Shown here in pieces: positions 1-58,009 of a stretch of 64,000 nucleotides of DNA (position 1 is the first letter of the stretch; each line of letters opens with the position of its first letter). This DNA is from Psilocybe cubensis (lineage: Eukaryota). The stretch is taken from NCBI GenBank assembly GCA_017499595.2, contig CM039008.1, positions 620,001 to 684,000 on the forward strand, read 5' to 3'. The notes beneath the pieces are model-generated. The model had not been told where the DNA came from and made no database searches. It was given only the letters and a program-made list of their open reading frames with translations. Both the position numbers and the translations under genes were made by a program.

Positions 1-1759
<1,759 letters not shown>

Positions 1760-3339
1760 CTCCCGGTAGGCAAAAAGAAATTAGAATGATATTAGCTCAC
1801 CTGAGATCTCATTATATATACTCAAGAATCTCACTAAAGGGGCTCACAAAACGCCCATAAGTCCTGGTAGCAGAGAGGATTGAATGGCTACCCGGGACAT
1901 TGATGGAACATCATGGCGGTGTCAGAGGCACATGAACGCCAGCAAAAGGTTGGTATGGTACTACTGAACTCTGGCAGATGCCATAAATTATTTGTGTTGT
2001 AGACTTCCTGCGCTAGTAAGTAGATAACCCGAAGGCCCAGCCGGCATTTGTAATAGTGAGAGATGTATGAGCGCGGGGCTAGCTTGACTGTCGAGTTTGT
2101 GAGCAAGTAAAGATAACTTGTAGTGGCTTAACAAGGAAGGAATTCACAATCACAGCTCAGCAGTATATAGTTCGGATGTTTGATAATCACCTATCGGCGG
2201 AGTATTAATAAGCTACATGCGTATCGTTGCATCCTCCTGAGTCTTGAGGGCAAGAATTGGGAACGAAAGGCGTTCTGCAGAAATATACAGTAAAATAACG
2301 CATGGAGTGAGCAAAGTATAGGACAAAAGATTCAGTTTCTAATAAATCTCCCTTTTTTCTTATTAACGTACACTAAGTTCTGGGAGTATGATTCTATGAA
2401 GATGTACTGTCGTGAAAATTCTCTATTTTTAGACTGTTTTATTTAGACCACATTCATTTAGGTGTTAAAATTAGAATGTTGGGATGTCAGGATCGACTGG
2501 TGACGCTGACGGTCCATCAATATGTATCTTCCAAACTGCTTCATAAATAAGGTTTGCATCCGATGCGTTATCCGAGGTTTGCCTTTTCAGACAATCGAGT
2601 TCATGGGATGTGTCAGAGTCAGGTAACATTCAGTACTATCAGCCAACTTGGTTCAACTTCGTAGTAGTACTTAAGGGAACTGAGAATCTCCTCTGGACGG
2701 TGGTGGCGGTTAACTAGAGGTGTATACCTCCGTACATCTAAGAAATTAAACGTATAGGCGATCGGAGAGTATAAATCCATATCACTAATCTAACAAGATA
2801 GTGGTGTTTTACCTTTTTATTAACCAAAGCAATTGCAGATGTGTGCGGCGAAAGTGAAATCTTTCGGAGTCTACCTGTCACCGCTGGACAAGTTTCAGCC
2901 AGGATTATACACCCTAATCAGACAAATATCTCCGAAGGCTAAAGGGTAACCCAGAAATAACGATAGTTGCTATAAACAATGTAGGTCTGCGGTTTGATCT
3001 GTAAAATTGAAAGCACTGAGAGATCTGCATTGTTGAAAGTGATTTGCTACTCCAGCACCTCAGCCCTACTTTGGAATCAATTCAATGAAAGTGATGTTGG
3101 CAATATTGATCCTTTTCCTTGTCCAACCTGCGAGGGTACACAAATCGACCGAATGGGTGTGCGAGCTTCGGCGCTTAATGCATATTACCAAACTAGGTCG
3201 CCGAGTACTTAGTACTTTGCTATCATATCGCCTGCTTGATAAATACCAAATACATTATTTTGTTATTCAGTGTTTACATCACTTTAGGTGACGTTGGGTA
3301 TCATTTGGATTGTGTATATACGTGGAGTCATCTTGAATT

Positions 3340-5672
3340 CTAGAGCTTCCATTTCTGCTTAATGAGGTCTGAGGCTCTTTCTCCAACGATGTAGACGTGG
3401 AACTGCGGATGCGCTCCTGGTACGAAGGGCTAGGAAAATACAGAAATTTAGAGTTGACATTGTGACAGAAGAGACAGATAAGAGACCCACCAGTACTGAA
3501 GCATCCACAATCCTCAACCCTTTTGCCGACTTTAAGAGCAAGTCAGGGTTTACAACTCCGTGTGACGAGGATTTGGGGGACATCGCCGATGTACCGAATG
3601 GATGGAACACGGTATTGGCGCCAGCACGAATGTATGCATTGAGTTGATCATCTGTGTTTGCGGTCGCAAGGGCGCCAAATGGACCGATGACGTATCCTTT
3701 CCAAGCAGGACTAGACAAAAATCGCTGTACGCTCCGAATTGCTTCGCGCATTGTGAAAAGATCAAAATCTGATCCTAAGAGGTTAGGATTGACCAGAGGA
3801 TCGTCAAAGGGATCATTAGATGCCAAAGTAATATTCCCTCCTAACACACAGAAAAGACAATTAGACACGCCGAAATGCATTGCTACCGATATGCACTTAC
3901 GGGATACTGGGGAGACAACAGCTGTGCTGACAGTCATGAAATTGCCAGTTGCAGGCAAGGTTGGGCCAAGCATCCCGTTCTGCAAACTCCAGTATAAGAA
4001 GGGTTCATTAAACATAAAGACCAAATAACCCACAGCAATAAGAAATTCGTAGTGGGGCGCAGTGGGTCCTGAGGAAGGATCCTTAAAGGATTTGAATATA
4101 GTAGTATTGTTCGGGAGACGAAGCCATCCTATGTGATCAATCGGTGATGCGGTCAACGGGCCTGTCTCCGTCAAAGTCCACTGGGCGAGCTGAGCTGCCG
4201 CCAATGTCGCATTTCTTTTAACGCTGTCATAGGTGTCCGTTGAATTGACGAAGAACGAATTTTGAAGAATAGAATGATCGGATAAATTATTGCCGACGTC
4301 TGGTAGGTCGACTACCGAGGAGATGCCCAACGCTTTGAGTGCTTTCTTGTCGCCAATGCCGGAATTGAGCAGAATGTGGGGAGTGCCCACCGTACCGGCA
4401 GACAAAATAACTTCTTTCGAAGCCGTCAGACGAATGCGAGGGCCTGCGTTTATGAACGGTAAGATTCGAGTAGCAGAACAATGTGAAAGATACACTTTCC
4501 TGTTCTGCTCTGAGCAAATTCTACGGTGGTAAGTACTGGGTTACCATTGCCCTTGCCGGTTTGCAAGATGCGAGTGACCCGCGTTCCAATTAGTACGTGC
4601 AAGTTGGGTCGGGTGATGAAGGCCGGGCCCAAATATGATGTCGCGGAGCTGCTCCTCCTTCCACCCTTTACCGTATTCTGGATCCAGCCTGTTTGAACAA
4701 AACTTGGTCAAAGAACTCCTGCGGGAATAATGGATGTAAACTCGCCTATGCCCAGAGGATTCCCAGAGTTCATGTCTAAATTAAATGGGAATTCATCCAG
4801 TTGCTGGGTCGTTGCAATGACCCGACTGTCAATTGGACGCGGAAACCCGGACAGGCTGACAGAATTGATTCCTGTGGTAGAGTGAACTGCTGGATTGAAT
4901 TGGCCTTGTGTATTGTGCATGTCAGCTGGAGGTGTCCAAGCCTCATTCTGAATGATGTGATATTGACAGTAAGGTTATTTTTGGTGCGTCTTAAAGAAAG
5001 GGATTTAGGATTAACCTTGCGAATGTATGATTGAATATTTTTCCAGCTCCATCCGTCGTCTCCCGATATCTTTGCGTAGCTATCCCAGTCAGAGGATGAC
5101 CCTCGCGTATAAGCTAGATAGTCTATGGAACAATCAGTACCCAACCGTGATACCGTGATTTGCGCTCAAGCCAAACGTACTGATTGAACTCGATCCACCT
5201 AGAATGTGACCCCGGGGGTAGGGTATTGACCGTCCACCGAGGCCGGGCTGCGGTGTTGTTGTAAAATTCCAGTCAAACGGTGTCCCAGGAGATGCCCTTG
5301 GGCAGAAGAACGGTATGATGGTATTGGTGGCATCCACATTTCTAAACGCAAACAATTTCTTCAGCCCTGAGAAATGACTTCCAGATTAAGACCACGACAC
5401 GAACGTTACCCCAGCTTCAAGGACGAGGACAGAGACATGGGGGTTCTCCGTCAGACGATTAGCGATAACATTACCTGCCGTTCCACCTGCGTTTGTCTGT
5501 CAGCTGCGATATTGACGTGATGTGCAAAAAAAAAACGCGATAACGGACCTCCTACGACAATGAAGTCGAACGATATATTGGGAAGATCCGCGACGTTTCC
5601 GATGACTTGCACGGAGTTGACAGAAACAGCCAACAAGGCGAGGGTGAGGGAGAGGGCGTGCCCGGGGAACAT
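3340..5672 (-). CDS. Secreted GMC oxidoreductase (AA3_2, aryl-alcohol oxidase-like); tandem paralogue of the previous gene
   Basis: MFPGHALSLTLALLAV signal peptide, FDFIVVG/GGTAG, EVILSAGTVGTPHILL, both catalytic His present (TVFHPFGT and PGAHPQ), ends LIKQKWKL* at 3340. Confidence 0.95.
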
Positions 5673-6534
5673 TGTCCGGGTGACAGCAGTCGAAGTTGTG
5701 TTGCATGCTGCAAGGCCTATCGCCTTTTTATGCACCGACCCGCGCTTTCTGAACCCATGGGGTTCTATAAATAAATACTCACGGTTTCCACGAATTTAGG
5801 GGGGCTGGTAGAAAGGGCCCTTGCCCTTGGGATACAATGTGTATTTACTAATGGATCGACCATTCCGAAACTGATGTGCAACGGGAGATAAACATTAAGT
5901 CATGCCGCCGTTGCATGCCTTCTCTTCGCAAGGGTACGTAGCATCGTTTTCGCGATATCGCTTAACACTCCGACACTTATAAATCCATACAGGAATCGTC
6001 ACTATGCTTTGAGGTTTGGACTGGTAGCACAAATAATAGGTAAATACCAAAATATGAGAGTAGACCACGGATACGACCACTGATTTTCTACGTGTAATAA
6101 TTTGCTCAGACACTTTGACTTCCGTGGAGTGCTCGCTTCATCCATCGCCATGAACACCCGAATTTCAAGTTGCAGGCACATTGACGTAACGGCGACTGCA
6201 CATCGTCGTAAGTGTGGACCTCCATACGTACATATAAGCAACCGTACCTACACTAAGCCTAGTTGTACATAACCTCTTCTCCTGGTCAAAACCATTTAAT
6301 GGTACCTCAATATGTCTTAATGGAAGTATATTCGAACCTGATATTTTTGGCCGTGAAGATAATGGTTTGTAAGCGTTATAAGTTTGGACTTCAAATTGTG
6401 AGATAGTCAATGACCGAATACCCTCGTGATTAAGAGAAAGGTAAGGGTGGCTAACTGGAACACCCTTGCCGCTTGATAATCTTCCACCACCAACTATACC
6501 TAGCTACTTACTTGGACGTTGACAAGAGAAAGTT

Positions 6535-44932: not shown

Positions 44933-45632
44933 GTTGATGTTGTTGCTGTTGTTGCGGTCTGAGCGGTCAGGATGCATAAGCACGCTTAGATATATACGCA
45001 CTGGTCCAAAACGTGCGATTCCGGGCGACTTTGGTGTGTTTGCGTCACTGAAGCGACGGAGAAACGTCTCGGGGCCTGATTTTGTTCCGAGCTTTGTCAA
45101 TTCGAAAGCCTAATTCTGACCCTGAAAACCGTGCGATTGGTTTGTGGGCACCGACGAGCTGGATTCGAGATCAAGATCTCCAGGTAGGTGCATTGTTATT
45201 TTGCGCGTTATTTTGGATTTTGAAGCCCCTGTTCGAGTTGTAGGACAACTTTCATGAGGTGAATGTCGAATTTGAAGGCCTAGAACGCCTAGCGTATGTG
45301 GATGTGATGAATTTCAATGTAACTCGAGTGGGAGAAAGGCTACAACGGACGGACTTTTGAACCAGCAAAGTTGTATTCAATGTTCAATTGATGTTACGAA
45401 GGCGCGTTCATGGAAACAAAGTAAAAAAAGGTGGGGACCGGGTTGATCACACGAATGGTTTTTTATTTTCGCCTTGAAGATAAAGTATTGCCAGTGGCAA
45501 TAGGGCCTTTCTGTGGGTGTTATTAAACGTAAATCTCTTTCTATTCGTGTGAATTTCTCGTTCAAACTCAGAACTTTGGATTCAACAAAGAGCTTTTGTG
45601 TTAATCCTCTGTTCGGTCCACCGTCCTTCGCT

Positions 45633-48600
45633 ATGGCACTCAGACTCAACTGCTTGGTTCATGGCGACGATCGCAGCGGGATATTCACTGTCCGCGCTAA
45701 TGGGAGATTAGACGTGTGCAACCTCAAGGATACAATTCTATCTCAGCCTAGGTTCTCGCACCTCGACTATGATGACCTCGACCTTCGGCATGTCTCAGGC
45801 TCATTTCTGATCAATGATGTTGGGCGAAAAGATCTTCACATCGACGACTATGTGAAACTGTCAAACGACTCGGAGAAGATTTCATCGATCTTTGAAGATA
45901 TTTCCAGCGATTGTCTGCACATTCTCATTGGAAGAGTATCAACGGGAGGTGAGCTCGTTGGCATCACTGCGCACTCTTTACTCTCTTAAAACTGGCCTTC
46001 ATTCTGACATCTGGTGTCTTTACTGTAGTGAACGAAAGCTCGATCAAAGATCCCGATGAATCCGAGGACGCAGGCATGCCTAACAGTGAGTAATACCAAC
46101 CGCTCGCTGTCCACGGTTCATGATATTGTACATAGCCAATTGGATGTCAGTGGCTTGGGAAACCAGATACTACGGGGAAAATCACATAAATCTCCTCACA
46201 AACATACGTGAATCCATTGCCTACAATCCATATGAAAATACGTCAGCGATTATCCAATCTTCCGGCTTTGGCAAATCGCGCACTGTGGATGAAATGGCAA
46301 AACTCGTGGCGACCATCCCCATGAATATACGAGATACCAGAGACAACGAGCAAGGTCTGTCTATATGGCGTCTCTCTGTGCACCATATCCTTAATCGATT
46401 GTATTCAGGTGCCTATCCGCATCCCGATGAAGACCTTACAAAACTTTTCAAGTTGATCGCTTCAAAGGCTAGAAATCTGGATAGCGCCGTAGAGGCCTTC
46501 CATAAGTTCTTTGCAATTCTATTCCGCGAGTTTTCCAACAAGGTCGACGCGTTGCTTCAAAGCGGCAGCAATCTTTCTTTGCCTGTCCTGTTGAGGGATG
46601 ACTTGGCAAAAGCCAATTCCAGGTCACTCCTCTACAAGACTGTGTGTGAGCAGTACAGTTCAGGAGCCTTTCCTGCCCCACAATCACACAATTCGCTCAC
46701 GGAATTTTGCAATCTGATGGGGAAATTGCAACCAACGATAGATAACAAGAAAGACAATGTTTGGTTGATCCTTTATGTCGACGAAGCCCATACGCTAACT
46801 GAGCTCAAAATCGCTAAGGATACGGATACAAAGCCAGTTTCAACACTCTATGATGCAATGGTTAAAGCCGCTACTACATATTTCGGTTACAAATTCTTCA
46901 TCCTCTTCTTGTCAACATCCTCTCGGCTCCGTCGCTTGGCAGGTCCTAGAGATGTTGCCAGGTCCGCGCGACAATTTATGCCTGAACTCGTAGCCCCGTT
47001 TACAGAAATGCCTTTCGATTGTCACCCTGAGCTACAAAATCACAAAATCAGACCAAACCTGCCACTCAAAGATATTCAGAAGCACGATTTCATAACCTAT
47101 TTCGGCCGTCCATTGTATGTGTTTTAATTGACTATATGCATAGCAATGAGGCACTGACTCCTTTGAGTGCGTAGATGGGCATCGGCGTTTCTTGGGCATA
47201 ATGGAGACAGGGAAACTGAAATCAGGAAGTTTGCTATCACGAAGCTTACGGGCCTGTCGCAGGTATCAGATATTTTCCGCAGTACGAATCTCATGCCAAG
47301 GCTTGCCGTCCTCGACACCCTTCTCAATCTCGAGTATTCTCCAGCGAAAATTCAGACGCGCAAGCTCTTCGATAGCATGGTCGCGCGTCATATGCGAACG
47401 GCGTTCTCTGTGCCTATAAACGGTATGCCCATGTTCAGCGGGTATCCATCAGAACCCGTACTTGCAGAAGCGGCATTGGACACCATTCAGATGACTACGA
47501 GTGCTTCCTGTCCGGAGCCTATGGCGAGATTGTATAACGAACTTTCGGACGATGCCAAAGAGGCGCTCGACGTGAGACAGCGAGGGGAGAATGTGGCCAA
47601 AATCATTCTTCTGCGTGCGTACATGGCCGCAGTCCGGGCGGAATGCGCCAACCAACAACACGAAAGCTATCCATGGAGAAATGGGTGCAGTCTTATCACC
47701 TTCCTGAAGCAGTTGACCGCCACGACATATCACTCCAGAGTGCTGGAATCAAGGCCGGACACCAAGGTTGACGGACAATGCTTAGACGAAGCGTTCAAGA
47801 ACGCATGGGTGCGATTCACGCATTTTGCAAGGGGCACAGATGATGCGGCGATGACGACTTCGATGGCTTGGGTTGCGTTCGTCAGAGGCATGGCAGTGAT
47901 TGGCGGGCCTGCGCAGGGCCCGGTCGACTTGCACATCCCGGTGCTCTTACACAAGGATAAACCGATCACGGAGGGCAACATGTCGGGTATTCTCGTGCAA
48001 GTCGAGTTGCGCAGAGCATGGTCTACACAGTCAACCGTGGCCATCGATGCAGACAAACTTTTCTACTTTCCCAGTCCTGAAAACCCTCGTGGATCAGTGG
48101 AACCACTTGATGAGGCGAGCAAGCGTCGGCCTTATATTTCCCTTGTCATGGAGCTCGGCAAGCCTGTCAAGCAAAAAAACCCCCCATCTTTAGTGGTTGA
48201 GGCTACTGATGATTGGATCCAAAAGGGAAAGCCACAGCCGAAGCCAGAGTCAAACCCAACGACGGGGCCGAGGTCACATAGACCTAATCTGTCTCATGTA
48301 GAATCTCAGCCTCCACCGACCAAGAAGAAATATGCGTCAGAGCGACATCCACGGTACAGTCTATTCTTCTATGGGCGATCACACAGAGTATATGGCTGCA
48401 TCCCAGAAGACCAATCCACCCAAGACGCATACAATGCGCTTCTCAACATTGGTGCCGCAGCCAGCTTCATGAATATGATCGATGCCTATCCTGAAGGCCG
48501 GGATCGAAAATACGTCTATCAGTTGAAGCCATTTTGGACTATTGGAAAGGACTGCTTGCATTGGGTGGAAGATGAGTCCTTGAATTATTCAATGTTAACC

Positions 48601-48714
48601 AAAGCAGAGGAGAAGAGCGAAGAGGTGTTGGTTGGAGACTATACTTCGATGGGTGTTGTTGACACATCTGAAGACACCCTCGATCCTGACGCGATGCATG
48701 TCAGTAACGACTAG
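45633..48714 (+). CDS. Crinkler (CRN)-type N-terminal domain + P-loop NTPase + restriction-endonuclease-like C-terminal domain
   Basis: MALRLNCLVHGD...IFTV...LKDTI...LDLRHV...LHILI (CRN ubiquitin-like NTD); IQSSGFGKS Walker A; ILYVDEAH Walker B; GYPSEPVLAEAA; VDLHIPV...GILVQVE. Confidence 0.78.
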
Positions 48715-49165
48715 TGTACTTTTTCCTGGGTCAAAGTAATGTAGACTCGGACGTCGTGACTCGGTGCTTTCTTGCCGTTATTGGATGGATGTCGGAGGCG
48801 CACTTACTTTTCTGTTTAGTTTGTAGCGCCTGGTGTAAGCCTGGCGCCCCAGCCTTACGACGCCCCTTTATTACTGTTCTCCTATATCTACACACGTCTC
48901 GGACATTTTCCCTTGCTCTCGTCTTCCCGCTTTCTTCCTTACGTCCTGCACCCTCCTGTACACCCCCTTAGTCTATCGTTCAATCGCATATCGTGGTCCC
49001 GGCTAACCTAGAAAATAATCCGCGCACTCAAAAAATGTTTCCGCGCTCCAACATGTTTCTAACAGATTCACATAATAAGAAAAATACATAAATAAGTTTA
49101 CGGGGAATATTTCCCCACTTGGGCAGCCATAAACAGATACAATATACAGAAAACAGGTTGAAGCT

Positions 49166-51967
49166 TTAGCTTGGCAGGTTGACGGGAGAGCAGTTAATAG
49201 CCACAAGACCATCTATTGAATGAGTGTTAGTATTACCATGTCTTATAATGATAACATGAGTTCATACTTGATTCAACGGTAGCGCAGCAGACAGCCTGGC
49301 CGGTGCTATTATAAAGTGCAAATCACATTTAGAAGGTTTTTCATAAGATATCATCGGAGACTCACCAGGAATTTCCACTAACACCTATGACATTGATGGG
49401 GGTGCAACTAAGACCAACGATGGTGTTTCCATCGCTCACGGTGATGCCCAACAATACGAGAAGTGAGGATGCGCTGTTGGCCGTTTCAGTGTTGCCGCAA
49501 CACAGGAGGTTGGCGTTGCACTGGTTCGTAGGCGGCTGCGAAGAAACTTGCGCGGCTTTGATTATGTCTGCTGTTCTTTCTGCAAGCAGGTACACAAGCC
49601 CTTGTGAGTGTGTACTAGGGCTCCTAGGCTATGGCACGCCGACCATTCATCAAGATGATGCCATACGGGCAGCGACAGTAGAGTTTTACTCACAAAAACA
49701 GACGCATCAACGATGCGCAGTCCATCCGCGCCTTTCACCAGCAAGTCGGGGCCAACAACGCCGGAGGGGTCATCGACCATCGACATGGACGCAGTGCCGA
49801 CGGGGTTCATGTCAGATATTGTGAGAGTGCGAACGTAGGCGTCGATCGACGCGTCGTCCGTGGCATTTTGGAATGCAGCGCCGAAGCGCCCGGCGATCCA
49901 GTCGCTCCATGCAGGCGCCGCTGTAAAGCGCAATACGGCTTTGACGGACTCTCGCATTGCTATAATGTCAAACGCCTCGGTGAGGTATCTGGGGTCGATG
50001 ATCGGCGGGGCCAATGGATCTGCACTGGCAAGTTTAACGGTCCCAGCTATTAAAAGGCGACATGCCAATAATTAAAAACTATGGTTCACAGGAATCAGAG
50101 TGATACTCACTGGACTCTGGGCTAGTTAGCATAGTTCCAACCGTAAAATAGCTGCCTTCGTCTGGTCTAAAGGGCCCAGGCTTTTCGAAAAAAAGATTCT
50201 GTGGGTTGATGCGTGTTAGTGCCACTTGAGCATCAAAAAATACTATATACCGTCAACGCACAGCAAAAATCATCTCGTAGTGGGGCGAGTTGGGACCCGG
50301 TGCAGGGTCTTCTTCCCCTGGGTCCAACGTAATCCGGGAAAAGCCAAAGTGGTTTACAATATTATTGATAAAAAGGCCAGTTCTATTAGCGATCCAGAGA
50401 TTTATTTGATCTTCTATCTGGGCCTGGTTTCGCAATAAATCGTCAAATGTCTGGTTGGCCACTGCATCTTGGACAACGAAGATGTTGGGAAGGAGTGTGT
50501 GATCATAAAGGTTGCTCCCCACCGCCGGATTGTTGATTAAAACGGTTATGTTCAGTTTTCGCAAGTCAACTGCATTTCCGATTCCGGAGAGCTGGAGGAT
50601 CTGCGGCGTGTTGATAGCCCCTGCGGAAAGAATGACTTCTCGAATCGCAGTCACTGTCACTAAAAACCTGTATTAGCATGCTCCAGCCATACGTTGGAAT
50701 ACGGGATATCATGTCTCACATGTCAAAGTCCCATGGGCATACTGTACGCTCCGAAACGACTTAAGCCCGTTTGCGGTCGTTCCAGTCTGAACGAGCTTCA
50801 AAACGGTCGCCGAAGTTAGAATGACGAAGTTCTGCCTCGCGGCCGCAGCGAGGTAGTATCCGGTGTAGGCGCTGCTGCGCGTCCCCTCCCCGGAGCTGTT
50901 CTGAACATAGCCCACACCGAGCACAATTTGGTCCCCGCCCACCGTGTCGTTGTTGTACTGGAACTCCGAAGACGGCTGGTTGAGCGTAGCCATGACGCGA
51001 GCGTCGATGGGGAAGCTCAGTTCCGGGAGACTTGCCTGAACGTTTCCACCAAATCCATGAAGAGCAGGGATGTACTCGCCAGTGATGCTATGGCCATCAA
51101 GCGGCTGGACTATTTTGTCATACTGATAGTATTCAGCATCGAAGATTTAAAACTTATAAGCGTTCACCGGCTTTTTGTTGGCGAGTGTGTATATATGCGC
51201 ACCTTTTGCACGTACTGCTTCATATTTGCCCATGACCAGGTGGGCTCCGCCGTCAAATTCGCAATCCTGTCCCAGTCCTCACTTGTGCCGAACTGGCGGA
51301 TCAAATAATCTGGAGGCAGACAGAACAGATGCGGTGATCAAAGTCAGCGAATCGGGTTCCCACTGGGTCAACAGCAGCTGTGAAAGAAACAGCCTGAGCA
51401 CTCGCACTCACTGATAGAACTGCATCCACCTAGCACCCTTCCGCGTGGGTACTCGAACGTCCGGAGGTTCAGACCGACTTGGGGCGAGACGGTGTAATTC
51501 CACGTGTACTGTGTCTCTGGAATATGTGTATGTATAGCGACATACGCGCATGTTGAGCTGGGCATACATACCGGGACTGAGGATCGGGCCCATGAAGGGG
51601 ATGGGCATCGGCAGGTCCCCTTCGTTTCTTGGACAAACGAGTCGAAGGTTCAATTCACGTTGCGACGCCCAGAGATATATGACATACCCTCTACCAGCTT
51701 CCAAAACCAGGACATTGGTCGCGCCGTTTTCGGTCAGACGATTTGCGAGCGTCAGACCAGCCGTTCCGCCTGTCATATCACCCAATCCATATCCAACATG
51801 ATTATAAGCCCACGATAATCCGACACTGAATGTTCAGGTTGCCTACCTCCAATGATCACATAGTCAAAGGACGTGAGAGGAAGGTCGGCCGGGTCGTCGA
51901 TTATAATGCCCCATACACGTTGTATAGCTCCTAGCCATAACACAGCGGATGCCAGCAATGTGCTCAT
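49166..51967 (-). CDS. Secreted AA3_2 GMC oxidoreductase fused in frame to a C-terminal class I hydrophobin
   Basis: Signal peptide, FDYVIIG/GGTAG, RGRVLGGCSS, EVILSAGAINTPQIL, LRIVDAS, AERTADIIKA, then with no stop QC-NANLL-CC...C...C-TGQAV-CC...C-SPVNLPS*. Confidence 0.88.
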
Positions 51968-53097
51968 AGCAGCTGACGAGCGCCGAATTTCGCAGATTTA
52001 CCTAGTAGAGTGACAATCAAGACGGTTCGGACGCATATGTGGTGTTACAAGTACCTGAAGATATCACTATCGGGCAGACTTTATACCCCCTGTAGCGCTA
52101 ACAGCATTCTGACTTCTAGCCGACCTCGTATTTACACGCCTGTGCCTATAAACACTGTATGTTCACAGGTCAAACATTGCCAGCAAGCCTGTAGTAAGCA
52201 TCATCAAAGGCTAACAGAGCAAAATTCTCATGTCGGTCCCTCTCGAGCCTCGAAGACATTCCATAATCTGACATGGAATGCTTTTTCGGCGCCTCGATGC
52301 CGAGCAGATTGTACTGTGTCTGTATCCACGGTGTATCGTAAGGGCAGTTTCGCCAGCACCAGGTTTCCGGAGCAGTGATTTTCTCGACCTGCTGAATGAA
52401 CGAGAACAAGAAAAACACCACGCTTCGTACATTGGAGAGAGTTCAGTCAAGGAGAGAGTTCAATCAAAGAAGACGTGCCCCCGAGGCACCATCACTGCCA
52501 CCATACCACCATACGTACTCGTAGCTCGTCTTGTTTTTCATCTGCGACTCGACCCCGCGCAAACCCCGAGCAGTTTCCCGGGCCATGTCAATGACGAACA
52601 CTTTGATCTCACCTTGAAAGTACAATGTAAAGATTTCAAAACGTTTCCGCGTTTCTGGATAAAAGTGATGATAATGTATTCACCTTATCGCCATTTCAAA
52701 AAATAACCAGAAGAGGTGCAGAACAGTTTCGACTTTAGCGCATGAACTTGGGCGCTAAAGCGTCTGTGGAAATTGTTGTATGCGCCCACTTGCGGAGCTT
52801 CTCTTCCCACGAATTGCAGCCAATTGTCAACGAAGTGGTCCCGTATCACCCTGTACATTCTCGGTGGAGATGGAAGATGCCTTTCATTCGGATCTGTAAG
52901 ATGCCAAAAGTAATTTGATTAGATTAAAGGTATACAACAAGAAAATATGATATGATATGGATATCAATATGGATTTACTATGGTCCGTCCGCCCAAATGA
53001 CTAGGTTCTACTTCTAACTTGTCTCGAAGAGTCCGTTTTTCTGTAAGAGTCCATGCTGTTTATTTCTACTTTGATGATGATGAGGGTGTGATGTATA

Positions 53098-53776
53098 TCA
53101 CAGTCTAGGGGTATGGACGGGTCTGTCGGCGACGTTGTGGTACCGGGCCATCTCATTCTCTTTCTTTTCAAAGCCACACTTCTGGTAAAAAGCTACAAAA
53201 TAAAACCCATTTCTCAGTGACCAGCGCACCAGAACAAAAGCAGTACAACCACGTACGAATGTTTTTATCACTGCAGTTCAGAATCGTCTTGTAGCACCCC
53301 GTATTTTCGCTGATAGCCGAAAGCGCCTGGATGACGCGCAGGCCGAGCTTGCGTCCCTGCATGCTCTTGTCGACTGCAATGTCCTCAATGTGCCCGACTT
53401 TGCCCAATCCACGCGTGAATTTCTGCTCAATGAAGACAGAGCCAACGCCAACGATTTGGTCCGTCCCGCGGTTCACAATGACGAGGGTGAAGTATGTGTT
53501 TGGGCACGCGCGCAGCGCGTTGAATGCTTGTTCGTACTGCGCCACGGTGAGGTCTGGTGTGGTGGTCAGCACCGAGAGTACAGAAAGGTGTGAGCGGGTA
53601 ATATCGGTCTTGGCTAGCGGCCGCATCTACAGGGGTACTGGTTAAAAGGGGTGTAGAGAGGTGAGCAACGCTCAACGCACATGGAGGTCACTGCCGAGCT
53701 CTGCTTTCACCGACGCAGGAATGAGCTCCGGGGAGAACAGGAGGTCGAGTTGAGAGTCTGGAGTAAACGAAGGCAT
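53098..53776 (-). CDS. GNA1: Glucosamine-6-phosphate N-acetyltransferase
   Basis: IEQKFTRGLGKVGHIEDIAVDKSMQGRKLG, GCYKTILNCSDKN, FYQKCGF. Confidence 0.93.
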
Positions 53777-55647: not shown

Positions 55648-58009
55648 CTACTCAACTGTTATTGGAGTTTCAAACAGCAACTTCCTAGCATGCTCTGAGC
55701 GTGGCCTAAGTCGCACCGAAAACGGTTCTGGCATCCTACAACAAACATCATATTAGGTCCCGAAGAAAACGAAAAACCACATACATAATTGTCCCGGGCG
55801 TATATGCGTATTGGGGGAGCACCTCCCTCCCATCCTCATCGAGCGCAGGGAGTATATCACACGTCGCCAGCACCGTCGACACAATCGCAAAGAGCGTGCC
55901 TTCCGCAAGATGCTTCCCGGGGCACACACGCCGCCCAAAACCAAAGACGAGGTCATGCACAGTTTGCATCGACGCGTCGGACAGGTTGTACCGGTCGGGG
56001 TTGAATTGTGATGGGTCGGGGTAGTCTGTTGGGTTATGGAGCATGCCCCTACAGAATTTGAATTAGAGCAGGAAAGATGCAAGTGGATGTACGCACCATA
56101 CATTGGGCATGATTATAGCGTTCTTCGGTATATCATACCCCTCATAAACATCGTCTTCCCGTGATGAATGCGGAATAGCTTATATATGCAAATCCCATTA
56201 GCATCAAAAAAACCAAAAAACCAAAAGTGCACACCAAAAGGCAGCCCAGGACTCCAACGGAGGACCTCGGTCATCACACACCGCACATACGGCATGTCCC
56301 GCATATCAGCGATGCAAGGGAGCCGCTCGCGCCCGAGGACAGCGTCGATCTCCGCCTGCGCCTTCTTCTGGACGTCGGGGTACATGACCATCGCCATGAG
56401 GAAGCTCAGCGCGGACGATGTGTTCTGGGGAATGATAAGATGAATGTACGTGTAAATCGTAAAGCGCGCTTGCTTACCGTGTCGAGGCCGGCGCCCATGA
56501 CGGTGGTCGCGGCCCACACGAGTGTGTCTTCCTCGTCCTTTGACATTGTAGCTCCGTCCGCAGCCTTAGCTCGCAAATTGTGTGCACAGAGGTTTGGCGT
56601 GTGCGCTTTCCCCGTGTCCTGGGAGTAATGAATAATCCTCGACGGCAAGTTGTTCTCGCTGACTCACCAAGTTTGATTTAGACCACCAGTACACGTTCCA
56701 CGTCGCATCCCACAGGATCTCGCGCCATTTATCCGCCGTTTCCAAAAACCCCGCACCAGGCATCCACCGCGGCATGTATTTCACTGACCAACACAAAGCG
56801 CTCCCGGTGAACAACCCATTGCAAAAAAAAAAAAGAATAGAAGTCGTATGACGCACGCGCAGGGATAAAATCGACCATAAAGTTCCCTGGCGCAGAGGCC
56901 ACCGCAAAATTCGCGATCGCCGCCAACGGCGCGGTCAAAAACGGGTCCGTGGGCGACTGGACATTGTACCCATACGCAATACGGACTATAATCGTGCCTA
57001 TCCTCCTATACACATCGCACACAGCTCGAGTCAACACTCGAACTCGAAATACACTCATAAAATCAAATTAAATCAAGCTGCGCGGTGTACTCACAACTTC
57101 ATCTCCGCGAACAGCTCCTCCGCACGCATCTGCCGCCGCCGCGTTCCCGAATTTGAATTTGAATCCTGCGCGTCGAGCAAACGCCGCACGAGCAAGCGCG
57201 CCTCGCGTTCCTGCACGGCGTGATACCGCGCGACCGGCCCGCCAGCCGCGAACTCCTGCGCGACGATACGGCGCTGTGCGCGCCACCGCGCGTTGTACGG
57301 CAGGAGCGTGAAGGACTCGTCGTAGCGTACCCTATAGAATCATGTCATTTCTCCAGGATAATTGACCGTCAGCGAGGTTAGGATTAGGACAAGTTAATAT
57401 AGAGAGAGAGCGGTAGCGTACAGATCGCCTGCCATGACCTTGTAGTAGTAATTCGAATTCGAAGTCGCATGAAAACGTCAGTCAATGTGTCAACGTCCGA
57501 TTCTCAATAACCCGACAAATCCACATGCGCGTGCGCCGTGGAATGTTATGTGGATTGGTGTGTGTGCACTCACAAAGTGTGGTCTGTTTGAATATATCGC
57601 GGAGCGCATGTCGAGGAGGTCGACGGCGGCCTTGCGCGAGTTGAGGATGATGAGCGGTTTACCGATGACATCGACGTGGATGATCCCGCCTGCTCGTATA
57701 TTCCACGTCAATCAATTTCATTTCATTTCATCTTCGTGTTCACGTAGAAGCACGTGGAAACAGGGAAAAGAAGGAGGACGCGCACGACGCACCGTACTTT
57801 GTGCCCCACTCCGCGAACACGGCCCACATATCCCGCGTTGGCATCTGGTGCGCGTTGCCGATGATTGGCAGGCGCGGAGGGCCTGGGGGAAGATGGCGTC
57901 TTCTCTTACGCTGGAGTGGATTCCATGGCACGTTAAAGAAGAAGAGGAGGGCTCCCGTAACGAGGAGGGAAGCAACTGTGGGGGAGGGAAGGGAAGGGAG
58001 GATGGACAT
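55648..58009 (-). CDS. Cytochrome P450 (CYP64-clan / CYP5144-like), apparently intact paralogue of 37918-40057
   Basis: LPPGPPRLPIIGN, GAGLDT, EVLRW, PDRY, DLVFGFGRRVCPG. Confidence 0.9.

Follow-up and report, generated by a model that had tools for sequence, protein, structure and literature searches.

Class I hydrophobins of basidiomycetes, such as SC16 and SLH4, are small, secreted stand-alone proteins of about 100 aa with a signal peptide, which assemble into amphipathic, SDS-insoluble rodlet films, and fusions to hydrophobins are a standard tool for enzyme immobilisation. In Aspergillus, the hydrophobin RolA recruits a cutinase to a hydrophobic polymer non-covalently, by ionic interaction, the enzyme being brought to the hydrophobic solid by a separate protein. 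Covalent arrangements have been engineered: the account of a laccase-hydrophobin domain chimera states that enzyme-hydrophobin fusions keep both activities (PMC7312733), and ArsC-Vmh2 is another engineered enzyme-hydrophobin chimera (PMC7862302). As these two sources describe them, both constructs link a redox enzyme covalently to a class I hydrophobin for sticking to surfaces. Natural chains in which a hydrophobin fold is one domain among others comprise the multi-hydrophobins CFTH1 and CPPH1 and, according to a 2025 survey, hydrophobin-like domains predicted within proteins of other kinds (PMC12375992). The partners named in the relevant passages of that survey are Fic/DOC, ribosomal L27, chaperonin, Nup54, BTB, ferric reductase, BUD32, a UbiH-like oxidoreductase and TPMT, and its authors propose interface localisation for the embedded domains. 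The same source gives the PDB names of SC16 (2NBH, 7S7S) and SLH4 (5W0Y). Regarding the enzymes, one account describes CBM1 modules on AA3_2 enzymes as already known (PMC10967070), and His502 is reported as the catalytic base of aryl-alcohol oxidase, AAO (PMC8140971).

The gene analysed here lies on the minus strand of a 64,000-nucleotide stretch of Psilocybe cubensis contig CM039008.1 (hereafter, the window), and its predicted product is a GMC flavoprotein carrying a hydrophobin domain at its C-terminus. While RolA and cutinase are two proteins, enzyme and hydrophobin are here one chain, and while the laccase and ArsC chimeras of the cited accounts are laboratory constructs, this fusion belongs to a wild genome and is transcribed. 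It also differs from the domains of the survey, whose partners are mostly intracellular, include no GMC enzyme and come without transcript support in the passages concerned, in that the partner is a transcribed GMC protein predicted to be secreted. The coding sequence (2061 nt, 686 aa) starts at the ATG at 51967 and ends at the TAA at 49168-49166, with GT..AG ends in all 11 introns and intron lengths of 55-102 nt. The N-terminus resembles those of the homologues P0001 and P0080 in the alignment, and the cleavage site of the probable signal peptide was judged by eye.

Table 1. Features of the fused gene, with positions counted within the window.
Feature	Position	Strand	Basis or remark
Whole gene	49166..51967	minus	12 exons, 686 aa; predicted GMC (AA3_2-type) flavoprotein with C-terminal class I-type hydrophobin domain
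Exons 1-6	51967-51847, 51769-51688, 51627-51572, 51516-51412, 51309-51203, 51122-50720	minus	gene model
Exons 7-12	50659-50262, 50198-50111, 50046-49694, 49628-49366, 49305-49268, 49212-49166	minus	gene model
Start codon and probable signal peptide	51908..51967	minus	sequence; about 20 residues, hydrophobic core LLASAVLWLGAI
Exon 9, bulk of the GMC_oxred_C domain	49694..50046	minus	PF05199, E 3.9e-23, 83 bits against a cut-off of 24.6
Codon AAC (Asn534), column of the AAO catalytic base His502	49805..49807	minus	exon 9 residue 80 = chain residue 502
Breakpoint of second haplotype	49737	minus	inside exon 9; below it unrelated DNA, protein truncated
Intron 9, 65 nt, separates GMC exon 9 from the junction exon	49629..49693	minus	GT..AG
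Exon 10, junction exon: last 24-27 GMC-fold residues, linker, hydrophobin Cys1-Cys4	49366..49628	minus	single open frame
Linker AAQVSSQPPTNQ, 12 residues, Ser/Pro/Gln	49521..49556	minus	between GMC C-terminus and Cys1
Hydrophobin domain, Cys1 to stop, two introns within	49166..49520	minus	Cys register and profile match
Intron 10, 60 nt, phase 2, splits the Cys5 codon	49306..49365	minus	spliced out in X1 contig record 1; CT..AC on the plus strand
Intron 11, 55 nt	49213..49267	minus	spliced out in X1 contig record 1

The junction is contained in one exon. As an earlier note on this DNA had read it, a single stop-free minus-strand frame in the list of open reading frames (49362-49628) connects the GMC end (...AERTADIIKA), via AQVSSQPPTNQ, to C-NANLL-CC; the GMC paralogue at 3340, said by that note to stop soon after the fold, does so five residues past ...DLIK. 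Three DNA-like sequencing runs from another study (X2, X3 and X4) yield unbroken contigs spanning 49104/49106-49766, with 2-4 differences, and show neither a new stop nor a break near 49545, where by the earlier note a stop or an assembly join would have spoken against the fusion. A fourth run, X1, is RNA by the guess of the tool only, and the evidence used is the splicing of its two contigs, which have 0 mismatches to the window. One of them (record 1) has introns 10 and 11 removed, at exactly the borders proposed before. The other (record 2) is continuous over 49425-49628 across the junction, taking in the splice of exons 9 and 10, the linker and part of the hydrophobin; past intron 9, 49628 joins 49694-49711, only 18 letters beyond, which is below the 31-letter rule of the tool. 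Contig depth is low (4-7), and the two contigs overlap by 4 nt, so that the fused mRNA is pieced from two. Because these contigs without introns run across the junction, the fusion is transcribed and spliced. The fusion is genuine and in frame within one exon, and a merged gene model, already dismissed in the earlier note, is contradicted by the position of the junction, the three DNA-like runs and the spliced contigs of the fourth. That the gene and its transcript are real as a fused unit is thus held with high confidence.

By its sequence, the tail (residues 602-686 of the 686) forms a class I-type hydrophobin domain that is complete but does not amount to a hydrophobin protein, as it lacks a signal peptide: neither a Met nor a signal peptide occurs between the GMC end and Cys1, in agreement with what had been noted. 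In contrast to the class I hydrophobins, it is neither a small stand-alone protein nor provided with a signal peptide. In the gene model, the eight Cys follow the previously described spacing C-X5-CC-X30-C-X12-C-X5-CC-X12-C, after which SPVNLPS and the stop are reached, and they align in register with those of the full-length representatives P0007, P0013, P0025 and P0037. Beyond ...IIK the chain contains neither Lys nor Arg. Exon 10 alone matches PF01185 with 31.5 bits (cut-off 23; profile 2-53 of 79; exon residues 38-86), this being its only Pfam match, and the window tail contains no CBM1 motif (CBM_1, PF00734). Tested against a profile built from 17 full hydrophobin representatives, the spliced tail (residues 602-684) scores 86.1 bits over profile positions 3-88 of 90, against 5.7 bits for the best of 200 shuffled controls. 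Among solved structures, it comes closest to 2NBH (E 1e-7) and 7S7S, and it shares with SC16 and SLH4 the eight Cys, the class I spacing and PF01185, and with basidiomycete class I hydrophobins the LLGI and VGLSCTPINVIG motifs. A P-x-x-Q-C-N motif ahead of Cys1 is also present in stand-alone hydrophobins, and the intron inside the Cys5 codon is common to the window gene and many stand-alone hydrophobin genes. In a regex count, the Cys5 site is occupied by W in 35 of the 76 hydrophobin representatives, which is what reading through an intron at this position would produce. Among these 76, the closest stand-alone hydrophobin reaches at most 56% identity, a word search with exon 10 returned five candidates, none of them scoring, and no close stand-alone relative, and tblastn detected no other hydrophobins within the 64 kb of the window.

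Of the proteins with a known structure, the AAO of Pleurotus eryngii (3FIM, 5OC1) is closest to the GMC part. The FAD-binding Rossmann motif GxGxxG is present as IIGGGTAGLTLANRL, spread over exons 1 and 2, and exon 7 matches PF00732 (GMC_oxred_N, E 1.3e-9); Pfam tests were run exon by exon, exons 1-5 not being scanned singly, and with GMC_oxred_C and PF01185 they give the full set of families expected from the earlier reading. Exon 9 aligns gap-free to 3FIM residues 423-538 (E 6.6e-28). Residues 1-27 of exon 10 align to the last 27 AAO residues, 539-565 of 565 in 5OC1 and 540-566 in 3FIM, colinear with the exon 9 alignment, this match being short and weak by itself (E 0.69; 0.048 for 5OC1). 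The AAO chain stops where the linker of the window protein begins. The equivalent of AAO His546, common to both proteins, is His578 (exon 10 residue 7, codon 49610-49608). On the other hand, the strictly conserved GMC catalytic His (AAO His502) is replaced by Asn534 in the window allele, and the Phe501 column holds a Met; because of these two changes, substrate range and activity may differ from those of AAO. His (CAC) is found at the Asn534 site in X2 and part of X4, and Asn in the window, X3 and P0079, the database entry for this gene in a related strain; the change at position 49807 (T>G, N->H) has full depth in X2, 24.2/39.2 in X4 and zero in X3. As Asn sits at the catalytic-base position, the window allele is probably weakly active or inactive, its activity being doubtful, while fold and family membership of the GMC part are secure despite Asn534. 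Within the overall explanation given below, it is assigned to the secreted AA3_2-type flavoproteins, in the clade of aryl-alcohol oxidase and pyranose dehydrogenase, whose members act as oxidases or dehydrogenases on aryl alcohols or sugars. The 'pyranose dehydrogenase' labels of the relatives are automatic names.

The nearest full-length relative, P0001 (Psilocybe cyanescens CVT25_005143), consists of the GMC part, AAQVSS, a Ser/Thr linker and a CBM_1 at 629-655 (E 7.9e-13). In the P. cubensis protein P0080, deposited as 'Pyranose dehydrogenase 1', the same type of linker is followed by what looks like the start of a CBM1: the truncated model ends in FGQCGG, with no Pfam match. At the protein level the window gene is 97.5% identical to a P. 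cubensis database entry, in keeping with a Psilocybe origin. The identity of the GMC part to the window protein is 70.6% (423/599) for P0001 and 70.9% (429/605) for P0080. The tree pairs the window gene with P0079 and places P0080 as the sister of this pair (support 96/89), all within a 100/100 clade that includes P0001; P0001 and P0080 both have the same style of signal peptide as the window protein. They differ from it in the tail, a linker of about 30-40 residues and a CBM_1 compared with 12 residues and a hydrophobin, and in keeping His at the His502 position, where the window allele has Asn. In P0001, AAQVSS directly follows the last GMC helix, P0080 reading AAQRST there, and since AAQVSS is common to P0001 and the window protein the tail extension begins at the same point in both. 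Because the window gene nests on a long branch inside the CBM1 clade, with a stem of 0.39 shared with P0079 against 0.07-0.10 for the CBM1 genes, it has the look of a recent duplicate, specific to the lineage, in which a hydrophobin took the place of the cellulose-binding tail. An origin by replacement of the CBM1 tail is considered likely. The recombination point may be placed at about 49539/49538, between AAQVSS and QPPTNQC, as the former is shared with the CBM1 paralogue and the latter is a typical mature hydrophobin N-terminus. No repeats were found in 47000-53000, and no second copy of 48715-49165 within the window. The CBM1 of the sister genes at the same point is the strongest clue of all, and one that the earlier note had missed.

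Searches of protein databases returned no other GMC-hydrophobin protein, and protein and metagenome searches found no fusion in a second species. A metagenome scan with exon 10 produced two loci, both hydrophobin-only with no GMC upstream, and ESM Atlas gave no usable match. None of the public protein sets searched contains the fused protein, and the annotated related strain has a broken haplotype. The literature search brought up no account of a naturally occurring GMC-hydrophobin protein, and the sole relevant publication is the 2025 survey (PMC12375992). The earlier statement on the lack of a described natural example has to be narrowed, as fusions of hydrophobin domains to other partners are predicted in that survey, with neither a GMC partner nor a validation in the passages concerned.

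The most plausible overall explanation, held with moderate confidence, is that of a real, transcribed chimeric Psilocybe gene in which a CBM1 tail was replaced by a hydrophobin, retargeting a secreted flavoenzyme to interfaces. It is proposed that a GMC-linker-CBM1 gene was duplicated in the Psilocybe lineage and that, just past AAQVSS, linker and CBM1 gave way to the section of a hydrophobin gene that encodes the mature protein; this section would have arrived without the signal-peptide exon and with its two introns. The GMC N-terminal signal peptide would then carry the whole protein through the secretory pathway, where the four disulfides of the tail would form. The hydrophobin module would shift targeting from cellulose to hydrophobic/hydrophilic interfaces, candidate sites being the hydrophobin layers of aerial hyphae and fruiting bodies, air-water interfaces, and waxy and lignin-rich surfaces, and the flavoenzyme would make H2O2 or reduce quinones directly at the surface. 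Whether the tail works as such a surface or interface anchor is about an even call. Transcribed from a wild genome, such an enzyme-hydrophobin gene would demonstrate that the design of the engineers has also been reached by evolution, and it would offer a natural linker and orientation to copy. With the CBM1 sister genes, it would represent a clean swap of targeting modules in a secreted CAZy auxiliary enzyme, its recombination point placed within a couple of residues and its date set after the split from P. cyanescens. Owing to this dating, and with the His/Asn alleles and the CBM1 paralogue as built-in controls, the role of a hydrophobin tail on an enzyme would be directly testable. A broader extension is possible and more doubtful than not: hydrophobin domains might be exchangeable fungal targeting modules like CBMs, a flavin oxidoreductase within or anchored to a hydrophobin coat might form a self-assembling redox surface, and the His/Asn alleles might segregate as active versus inactive or differently active forms.

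The same fusion, although real, could be a young neutral or decaying chimera that, once duplicated, has lost CBM1 through an accidental rearrangement as well as the catalytic His and is turning into a pseudogene, with a tail lacking a selected role. The allelic data bear on this point in both directions. On one hand, besides Asn in the His502 column of the window allele, X3 and P0079, there is a haplotype broken at 49737, carried by X3, by X4 and by the strain from which P0079 derives: X3 and X4 contain 28-letter loose ends at this position, the hand translation of which is the odd tail (HCAHAVTRR...) of P0079. It follows from this haplotype that heterozygotes, at least, can do without the gene. 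P0079 differs from the window protein in 10 of 400 residues, several differences being radical (G->R, R->W, P->L). The long stem branch, the low X1 depth and the restriction to a single lineage point the same way. On the other hand, the window allele retains the 686-codon open frame, the splice sites of 11 introns and all eight Cys, it is transcribed and correctly spliced, and His alleles persist in X2 and X4. Moreover, the polymorphisms of the mature part comprise 4 non-synonymous and 8 synonymous changes among the 40 of 79 differences listed, three of the four non-synonymous ones conservative. The terminal branch of the window gene is 0, every difference from P0079 falling on the P0079 branch, so the intact allele is not gathering changes. 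As to the long stem, relaxed constraint and new function fit it equally. Taken together, decay appears rather unlikely.

Fungi are known to produce polyproteins that are processed in the secretory pathway, such as Ustilago Rep1. By analogy, the hydrophobin could be the working product of the gene and the GMC part a secretion carrier or pro-domain, so that a chain of about 72 kDa before glycosylation would be cut in the linker to free a hydrophobin of about 9 kDa and possibly the enzyme. This would agree with a tail that lacks a signal peptide and is secreted via the GMC N-terminus, and with the missing catalytic His of the window allele. Nevertheless, no dibasic site (KR, RR or other) is found in or near the linker, the sole dibasic pair of the protein being RK at 325, the linker has just 12 residues, and a carrier of 600 residues would be costly for a protein of 90, given that ordinary hydrophobin genes exist. 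Such a processing scheme is therefore improbable.

Least credible of all, and largely refuted, is an artefact in which a misjoined assembly or a mistaken gene model sets a hydrophobin gene behind a GMC gene, since the absence of a hydrophobin from the P0079 model and of the architecture from the other database proteins searched is outweighed by a junction within one exon and one frame, by unbroken and SNP-distinct contigs from another study, by the X1 contig that crosses the exon 9/10 splice and the linker into the hydrophobin, and by the 49737 haplotype, which accounts for the odd end of P0079.

The fusion of a GMC flavoprotein to a C-terminal class I hydrophobin is confirmed as genuine and expressed. 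The gene has a clean, basidiomycete-style model of 12 exons running on the minus strand from an ATG at 51967 to a TAA at 49168-49166, in which all 11 introns measure 55-102 nt and bear GT..AG ends, and its CDS of 2061 nt encodes 686 aa. The chain opens with a secretory-type N-terminus and a complete GMC fold, which a linker of 12 residues connects to an equally complete hydrophobin domain. The junction lies in exon 10, a single frame without a stop (ORF 49362-49628) that begins with the ordinary GMC C-terminus PRSPSTHSQGLVYLLAERTADIIKA, continues as AQVSSQPPTNQ and enters the hydrophobin at C-NANLL-CC. The two short exons that follow complete the pattern C-X5-CC-X30-C-X12-C-X5-CC-X12-C, after which come SPVNLPS and the stop. 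The coordinates, introns and cysteine spacing read by the earlier note all match this model, and the paralogue near 3340 does end a few residues past the equivalent helix, as it had described.

Exons that carry the junction and the hydrophobin, and neighbouring genes
Feature	Position	Strand	Basis or remark
GMC paralogue	136-1690	minus	30-41% identity to GMC part of fusion gene
GMC paralogue, normal end ...ERASDLIKQKWKL*	3340-5606	minus	30-41% identity to GMC part of fusion gene
Crinkler N-terminal domain gene, convergent with fusion gene	45504-48714	plus	ORFs and Pfam
Exon 12, short, completes hydrophobin	49212-49166	minus	gene model
Exon 11, short, completes hydrophobin	49305-49268	minus	gene model
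Exon 10, junction	49628-49366	minus	gene model
GNAT gene	53168-53626		
P450	near 56113-56565		

Family searches were run on single exons, and the spliced protein was tested with a scripted profile. The Pfam scan proposed in the earlier note recovers, exon by exon, the end of GMC_oxred_N (exon 7, E 1.3e-9), GMC_oxred_C (exon 9, E 3.9e-23) and Hydrophobin PF01185 (exon 10 residues 38-86, 31.5 bits at a cut-off of 23, profile positions 2-53 of 79). In the comparison with solved structures, exon 9 gave an ungapped alignment with residues 423-538 of the Pleurotus eryngii aryl-alcohol oxidase (AAO, 3FIM; E 6.6e-28), and the last 27 residues of AAO align to the first 27 of exon 10; the normal enzyme therefore stops where the linker starts. 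The remainder of exon 10 matches the solved hydrophobins 2NBH (E 1e-7), 7S7S, 5W0Y and 6E98. Against our own hydrophobin profile, to which the 17 database representatives (of 76) with a complete eight-cysteine pattern contributed, residues 602-684 of the spliced protein score 86.1 bits over profile positions 3-88 of 90 (best of 200 shuffled tails, 5.7 bits), and all eight cysteines are in register with full-length hydrophobins in an alignment with 25 of 63 short representatives.

A filter-free phmmer search with exon 10 against 1.84 billion representatives, each standing for a 50% cluster, returned 76 proteins at E <= 0.001, in every case by way of the hydrophobin part and with a maximum length of 540 aa; in the 10 matches scanned (the seven longest and three of 175-184 aa) no domain besides PF01185 exceeded the threshold. 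No second GMC-hydrophobin protein emerged from these representatives, from 60 GMC relatives, from protein word searches, from the ESM Atlas or from a metagenome scan, and none of natural origin was found in the literature. As far as seen in these searches, the fusion appears confined to one lineage. The suggestion that no natural example had been described holds for the GMC-hydrophobin pair in the literature searched, but not for hydrophobin-like domains inside proteins of other kinds, since section 3.7 of a 2025 Protein Science paper (PMC12375992) reports them as predicted beside Fic/DOC, L27, chaperonin, Nup54, BTB, ferric reductase, BUD32, UbiH-like oxidoreductase and TPMT. Its authors propose an interface localisation for these domains, which that section gives as predictions without validation. 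In addition, an N-terminal cellulose-binding module (CBM1) has been described on AA3_2 enzymes (PMC10967070). The fusion gene is a variation on modular AA3_2 enzymes and hydrophobin-domain proteins, both of which are known.

The origin of the fusion gene is unusually clear. When longer proteins were searched by words of exon 10, a single match came back, Psilocybe cyanescens CVT25_005143 (P0001, 660 aa), whose C-terminus runs ...AERAADIIKAAQVSS, then through a Ser/Thr linker into a CBM1 (Pfam CBM_1 at 629-655, E 7.9e-13). The exon 9 search returned the 60 GMC relatives at E <= 1e-20, with PF01185 in none and PF00734 in one. Two of them, P0079 and P0080, are P. cubensis proteins from one 3.05-Mb contig. 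P0079, of 427 aa, matches window protein residues 158-557 at 97.5% identity (390/400) and represents the same gene in truncated form; the deposited model begins with exon 6 and closes with the tail of a haplotype that departs at 49737. P0080 (654 aa; 70.9% identity to the window protein, 429/605) ends in AAQRS, followed by a Ser/Thr linker and then by FGQCGG, the last of which resembles a CBM1 start cut by the deposited model six residues in, and Pfam gives no match at this CBM1-like tail. Both deposited models seem incomplete.

A midpoint-rooted tree was built from 22 of the 60 exon 9 matches plus the window protein. The other 38 rows were set aside as fragments, as unnamed or more distant entries or, in the case of P0078, as a double model of 1220 aa. 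The four-row Psilocybe clade nevertheless sits on a stem of 0.49 and has the topology (P0001, (P0080, (window, P0079))), in which the whole group has 100/100 support and its inner three rows 96/89. The stem branch to window and P0079 measures 0.39, compared with 0.07-0.10 for the CBM1 genes. By parsimony, the ancestor of the clade would have carried a CBM1 tail, and the window gene would be a fast-evolving duplicate, postdating the P. cyanescens split, that lost the CBM1 and gained a hydrophobin.

P0001 and the window protein share AAQVSS before they diverge (P0080 has AAQRS), and the QPPTNQC that follows resembles the segment before Cys1 of stand-alone hydrophobins; the join therefore falls within a few residues of 49539/49538. 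At the Cys5 site a simple regex count finds W in 35 of the 76 hydrophobin representatives, and the window ORF likewise reads W there, as expected from intron read-through. These W-type representatives look like gene calls reading through a conserved intron, so that in large protein sets many of the entries named 'hydrophobin' would be truncated or mis-spliced. Since the read-through is common to both, the hydrophobin module has retained the family intron position, which favours capture at the DNA level and points to a probable donor gene taken up minus its signal-peptide exon. The 35 W-type representatives (from P0009-P0076) run into unrelated residues after this site.

On the most likely reading, the whole chain would be secreted and the hydrophobin tail would assume the targeting role held by CBM1 in the sister enzymes. 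Cellulose would thereby give way, as the enzyme's target, to hydrophobic/hydrophilic interfaces or to hydrophobin films of the fungus itself, and peroxide would be produced or quinones reduced at these sites. That such designs can work is indicated by engineered chimeras, among them one of laccase with a hydrophobin (PMC7312733).

The state of the alleles bears on an alternative that we consider rather unlikely, namely that this is a young chimera that is neutral or decaying. Asn534 (AAC at 49807-49805; exon 9 residue 80) aligns to AAO His502, the catalytic base, a catalytic His being described in PMC8140971 as common to all GMC members. In the DNA-like runs X2, X3 and X4 (a single study, 41-47 Mb of contigs each), a His codon at 49807 accounts for all the depth in X2 and for 24.2 of 39.2 in X4, and is absent in X3; P0079 has Asn in this column, P0001 and P0080 His. 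Because His occurs in these two proteins and in X2 and X4, Asn534 is a derived, segregating allele, and the window allele may encode a weak or dead enzyme. One contig in each of X3 and X4 departs from the window sequence at 49737, and the 28 loose letters beyond translate (by hand) to V-HCAHAVTRR, the exact odd tail of P0079. There is thus a second haplotype whose break lies within exon 9, and this accounts for the missing hydrophobin of the deposited P0079. All ten window/P0079 differences lie on the P0079 branch of the tree. The fusion gene is polymorphic at a catalytic residue, and one of its haplotypes is null. In the mature part, 4 non-synonymous (I39V, M201L, N534H, I677V) and 8 synonymous changes occur among the 40 of 79 run differences listed, a partial list that hints at constraint.

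Between runs, the 5' gene part and promoter (51126-52100) vary much more than the 3' part: about 945-976 nt contain 30-31 differences, 10 of them SNPs in exon 1 (121 nt), together with 3 gaps, against 2-4 differences in about 661 nt at 49104-49766. This contrast suggests that divergent haplotypes may have recombined within the gene. X3 and X4 also each contain a contig joint at 49832-49877 (side 30, depths 17 and 15) skipping 44 nt inside exon 9; either a contig-graph bubble at a heterozygous position or a deletion allele that breaks the frame may lie behind it.

Secretion of an intact chain also has to be set beside a GMC carrier from which the hydrophobin is released; we regard this as very improbable, and the 12-residue linker contains no dibasic site. 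An artefact is scarcely credible, and at 49545, near which the earlier note had envisaged a stop or an assembly join, X2, X3 and X4 each carry an unspliced contig (49104/49106 to 49766) that crosses unbroken; each differs from the window at only 2-4 positions, and no difference creates a stop. The listed ones comprise 49198, which changes Ile to Val, along with 49630 and 49654, both in intron 9; carrying such SNPs, these runs are not merely the window's source data.

The transcript check proposed for 49628-49166 is addressed by X1, a run from another study whose RNA status is a guess, none of the four runs being recorded as RNA. One X1 contig joins 49162-49212, 49268-49305 and 49366-49428, lacking both hydrophobin introns. 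The removed introns have GT..AG ends, and at each joint the shorter side counts 38 letters. The other contig covers 49425-49628 and then 49694-49711, and reads without a break from exon 10's first codon across the linker to past Cys3; neither contig has a mismatch to the window. They show a spliced transcript spanning the junction, pieced from two contigs and not one full-length molecule, because the exon 9 side has 18 letters (under the 31-letter joint rule, hence absent from the joint table), the overlap is just 4 nt and the depths are 4-7.

With the two additional paralogues, the window holds three GMC genes. The Crinkler gene includes an ORF (45504-45989, plus) with the effector N-terminal domain PF20147 (E 8e-12), and the 345-aa and 515-aa ORFs after it, up to 48714, have no Pfam match. 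No link between the neighbours (GMC paralogues, Crinkler, GNAT, P450) and the fusion was seen. About 30-70 nt beyond the fusion stop codon, at 49097-49135, lies a short piece with the palindrome GGGGAATATTTCCCC, flanked by loose contig ends at 49097 and 49131-49136 and without a second copy within the window. It occurs in very many X2-X4 contigs, with a summed depth of 860-6500 versus 21-92 in the gene, and has the look of a short repeat in high copy number or of a mobile-element end adjoining the 3' end of the gene.
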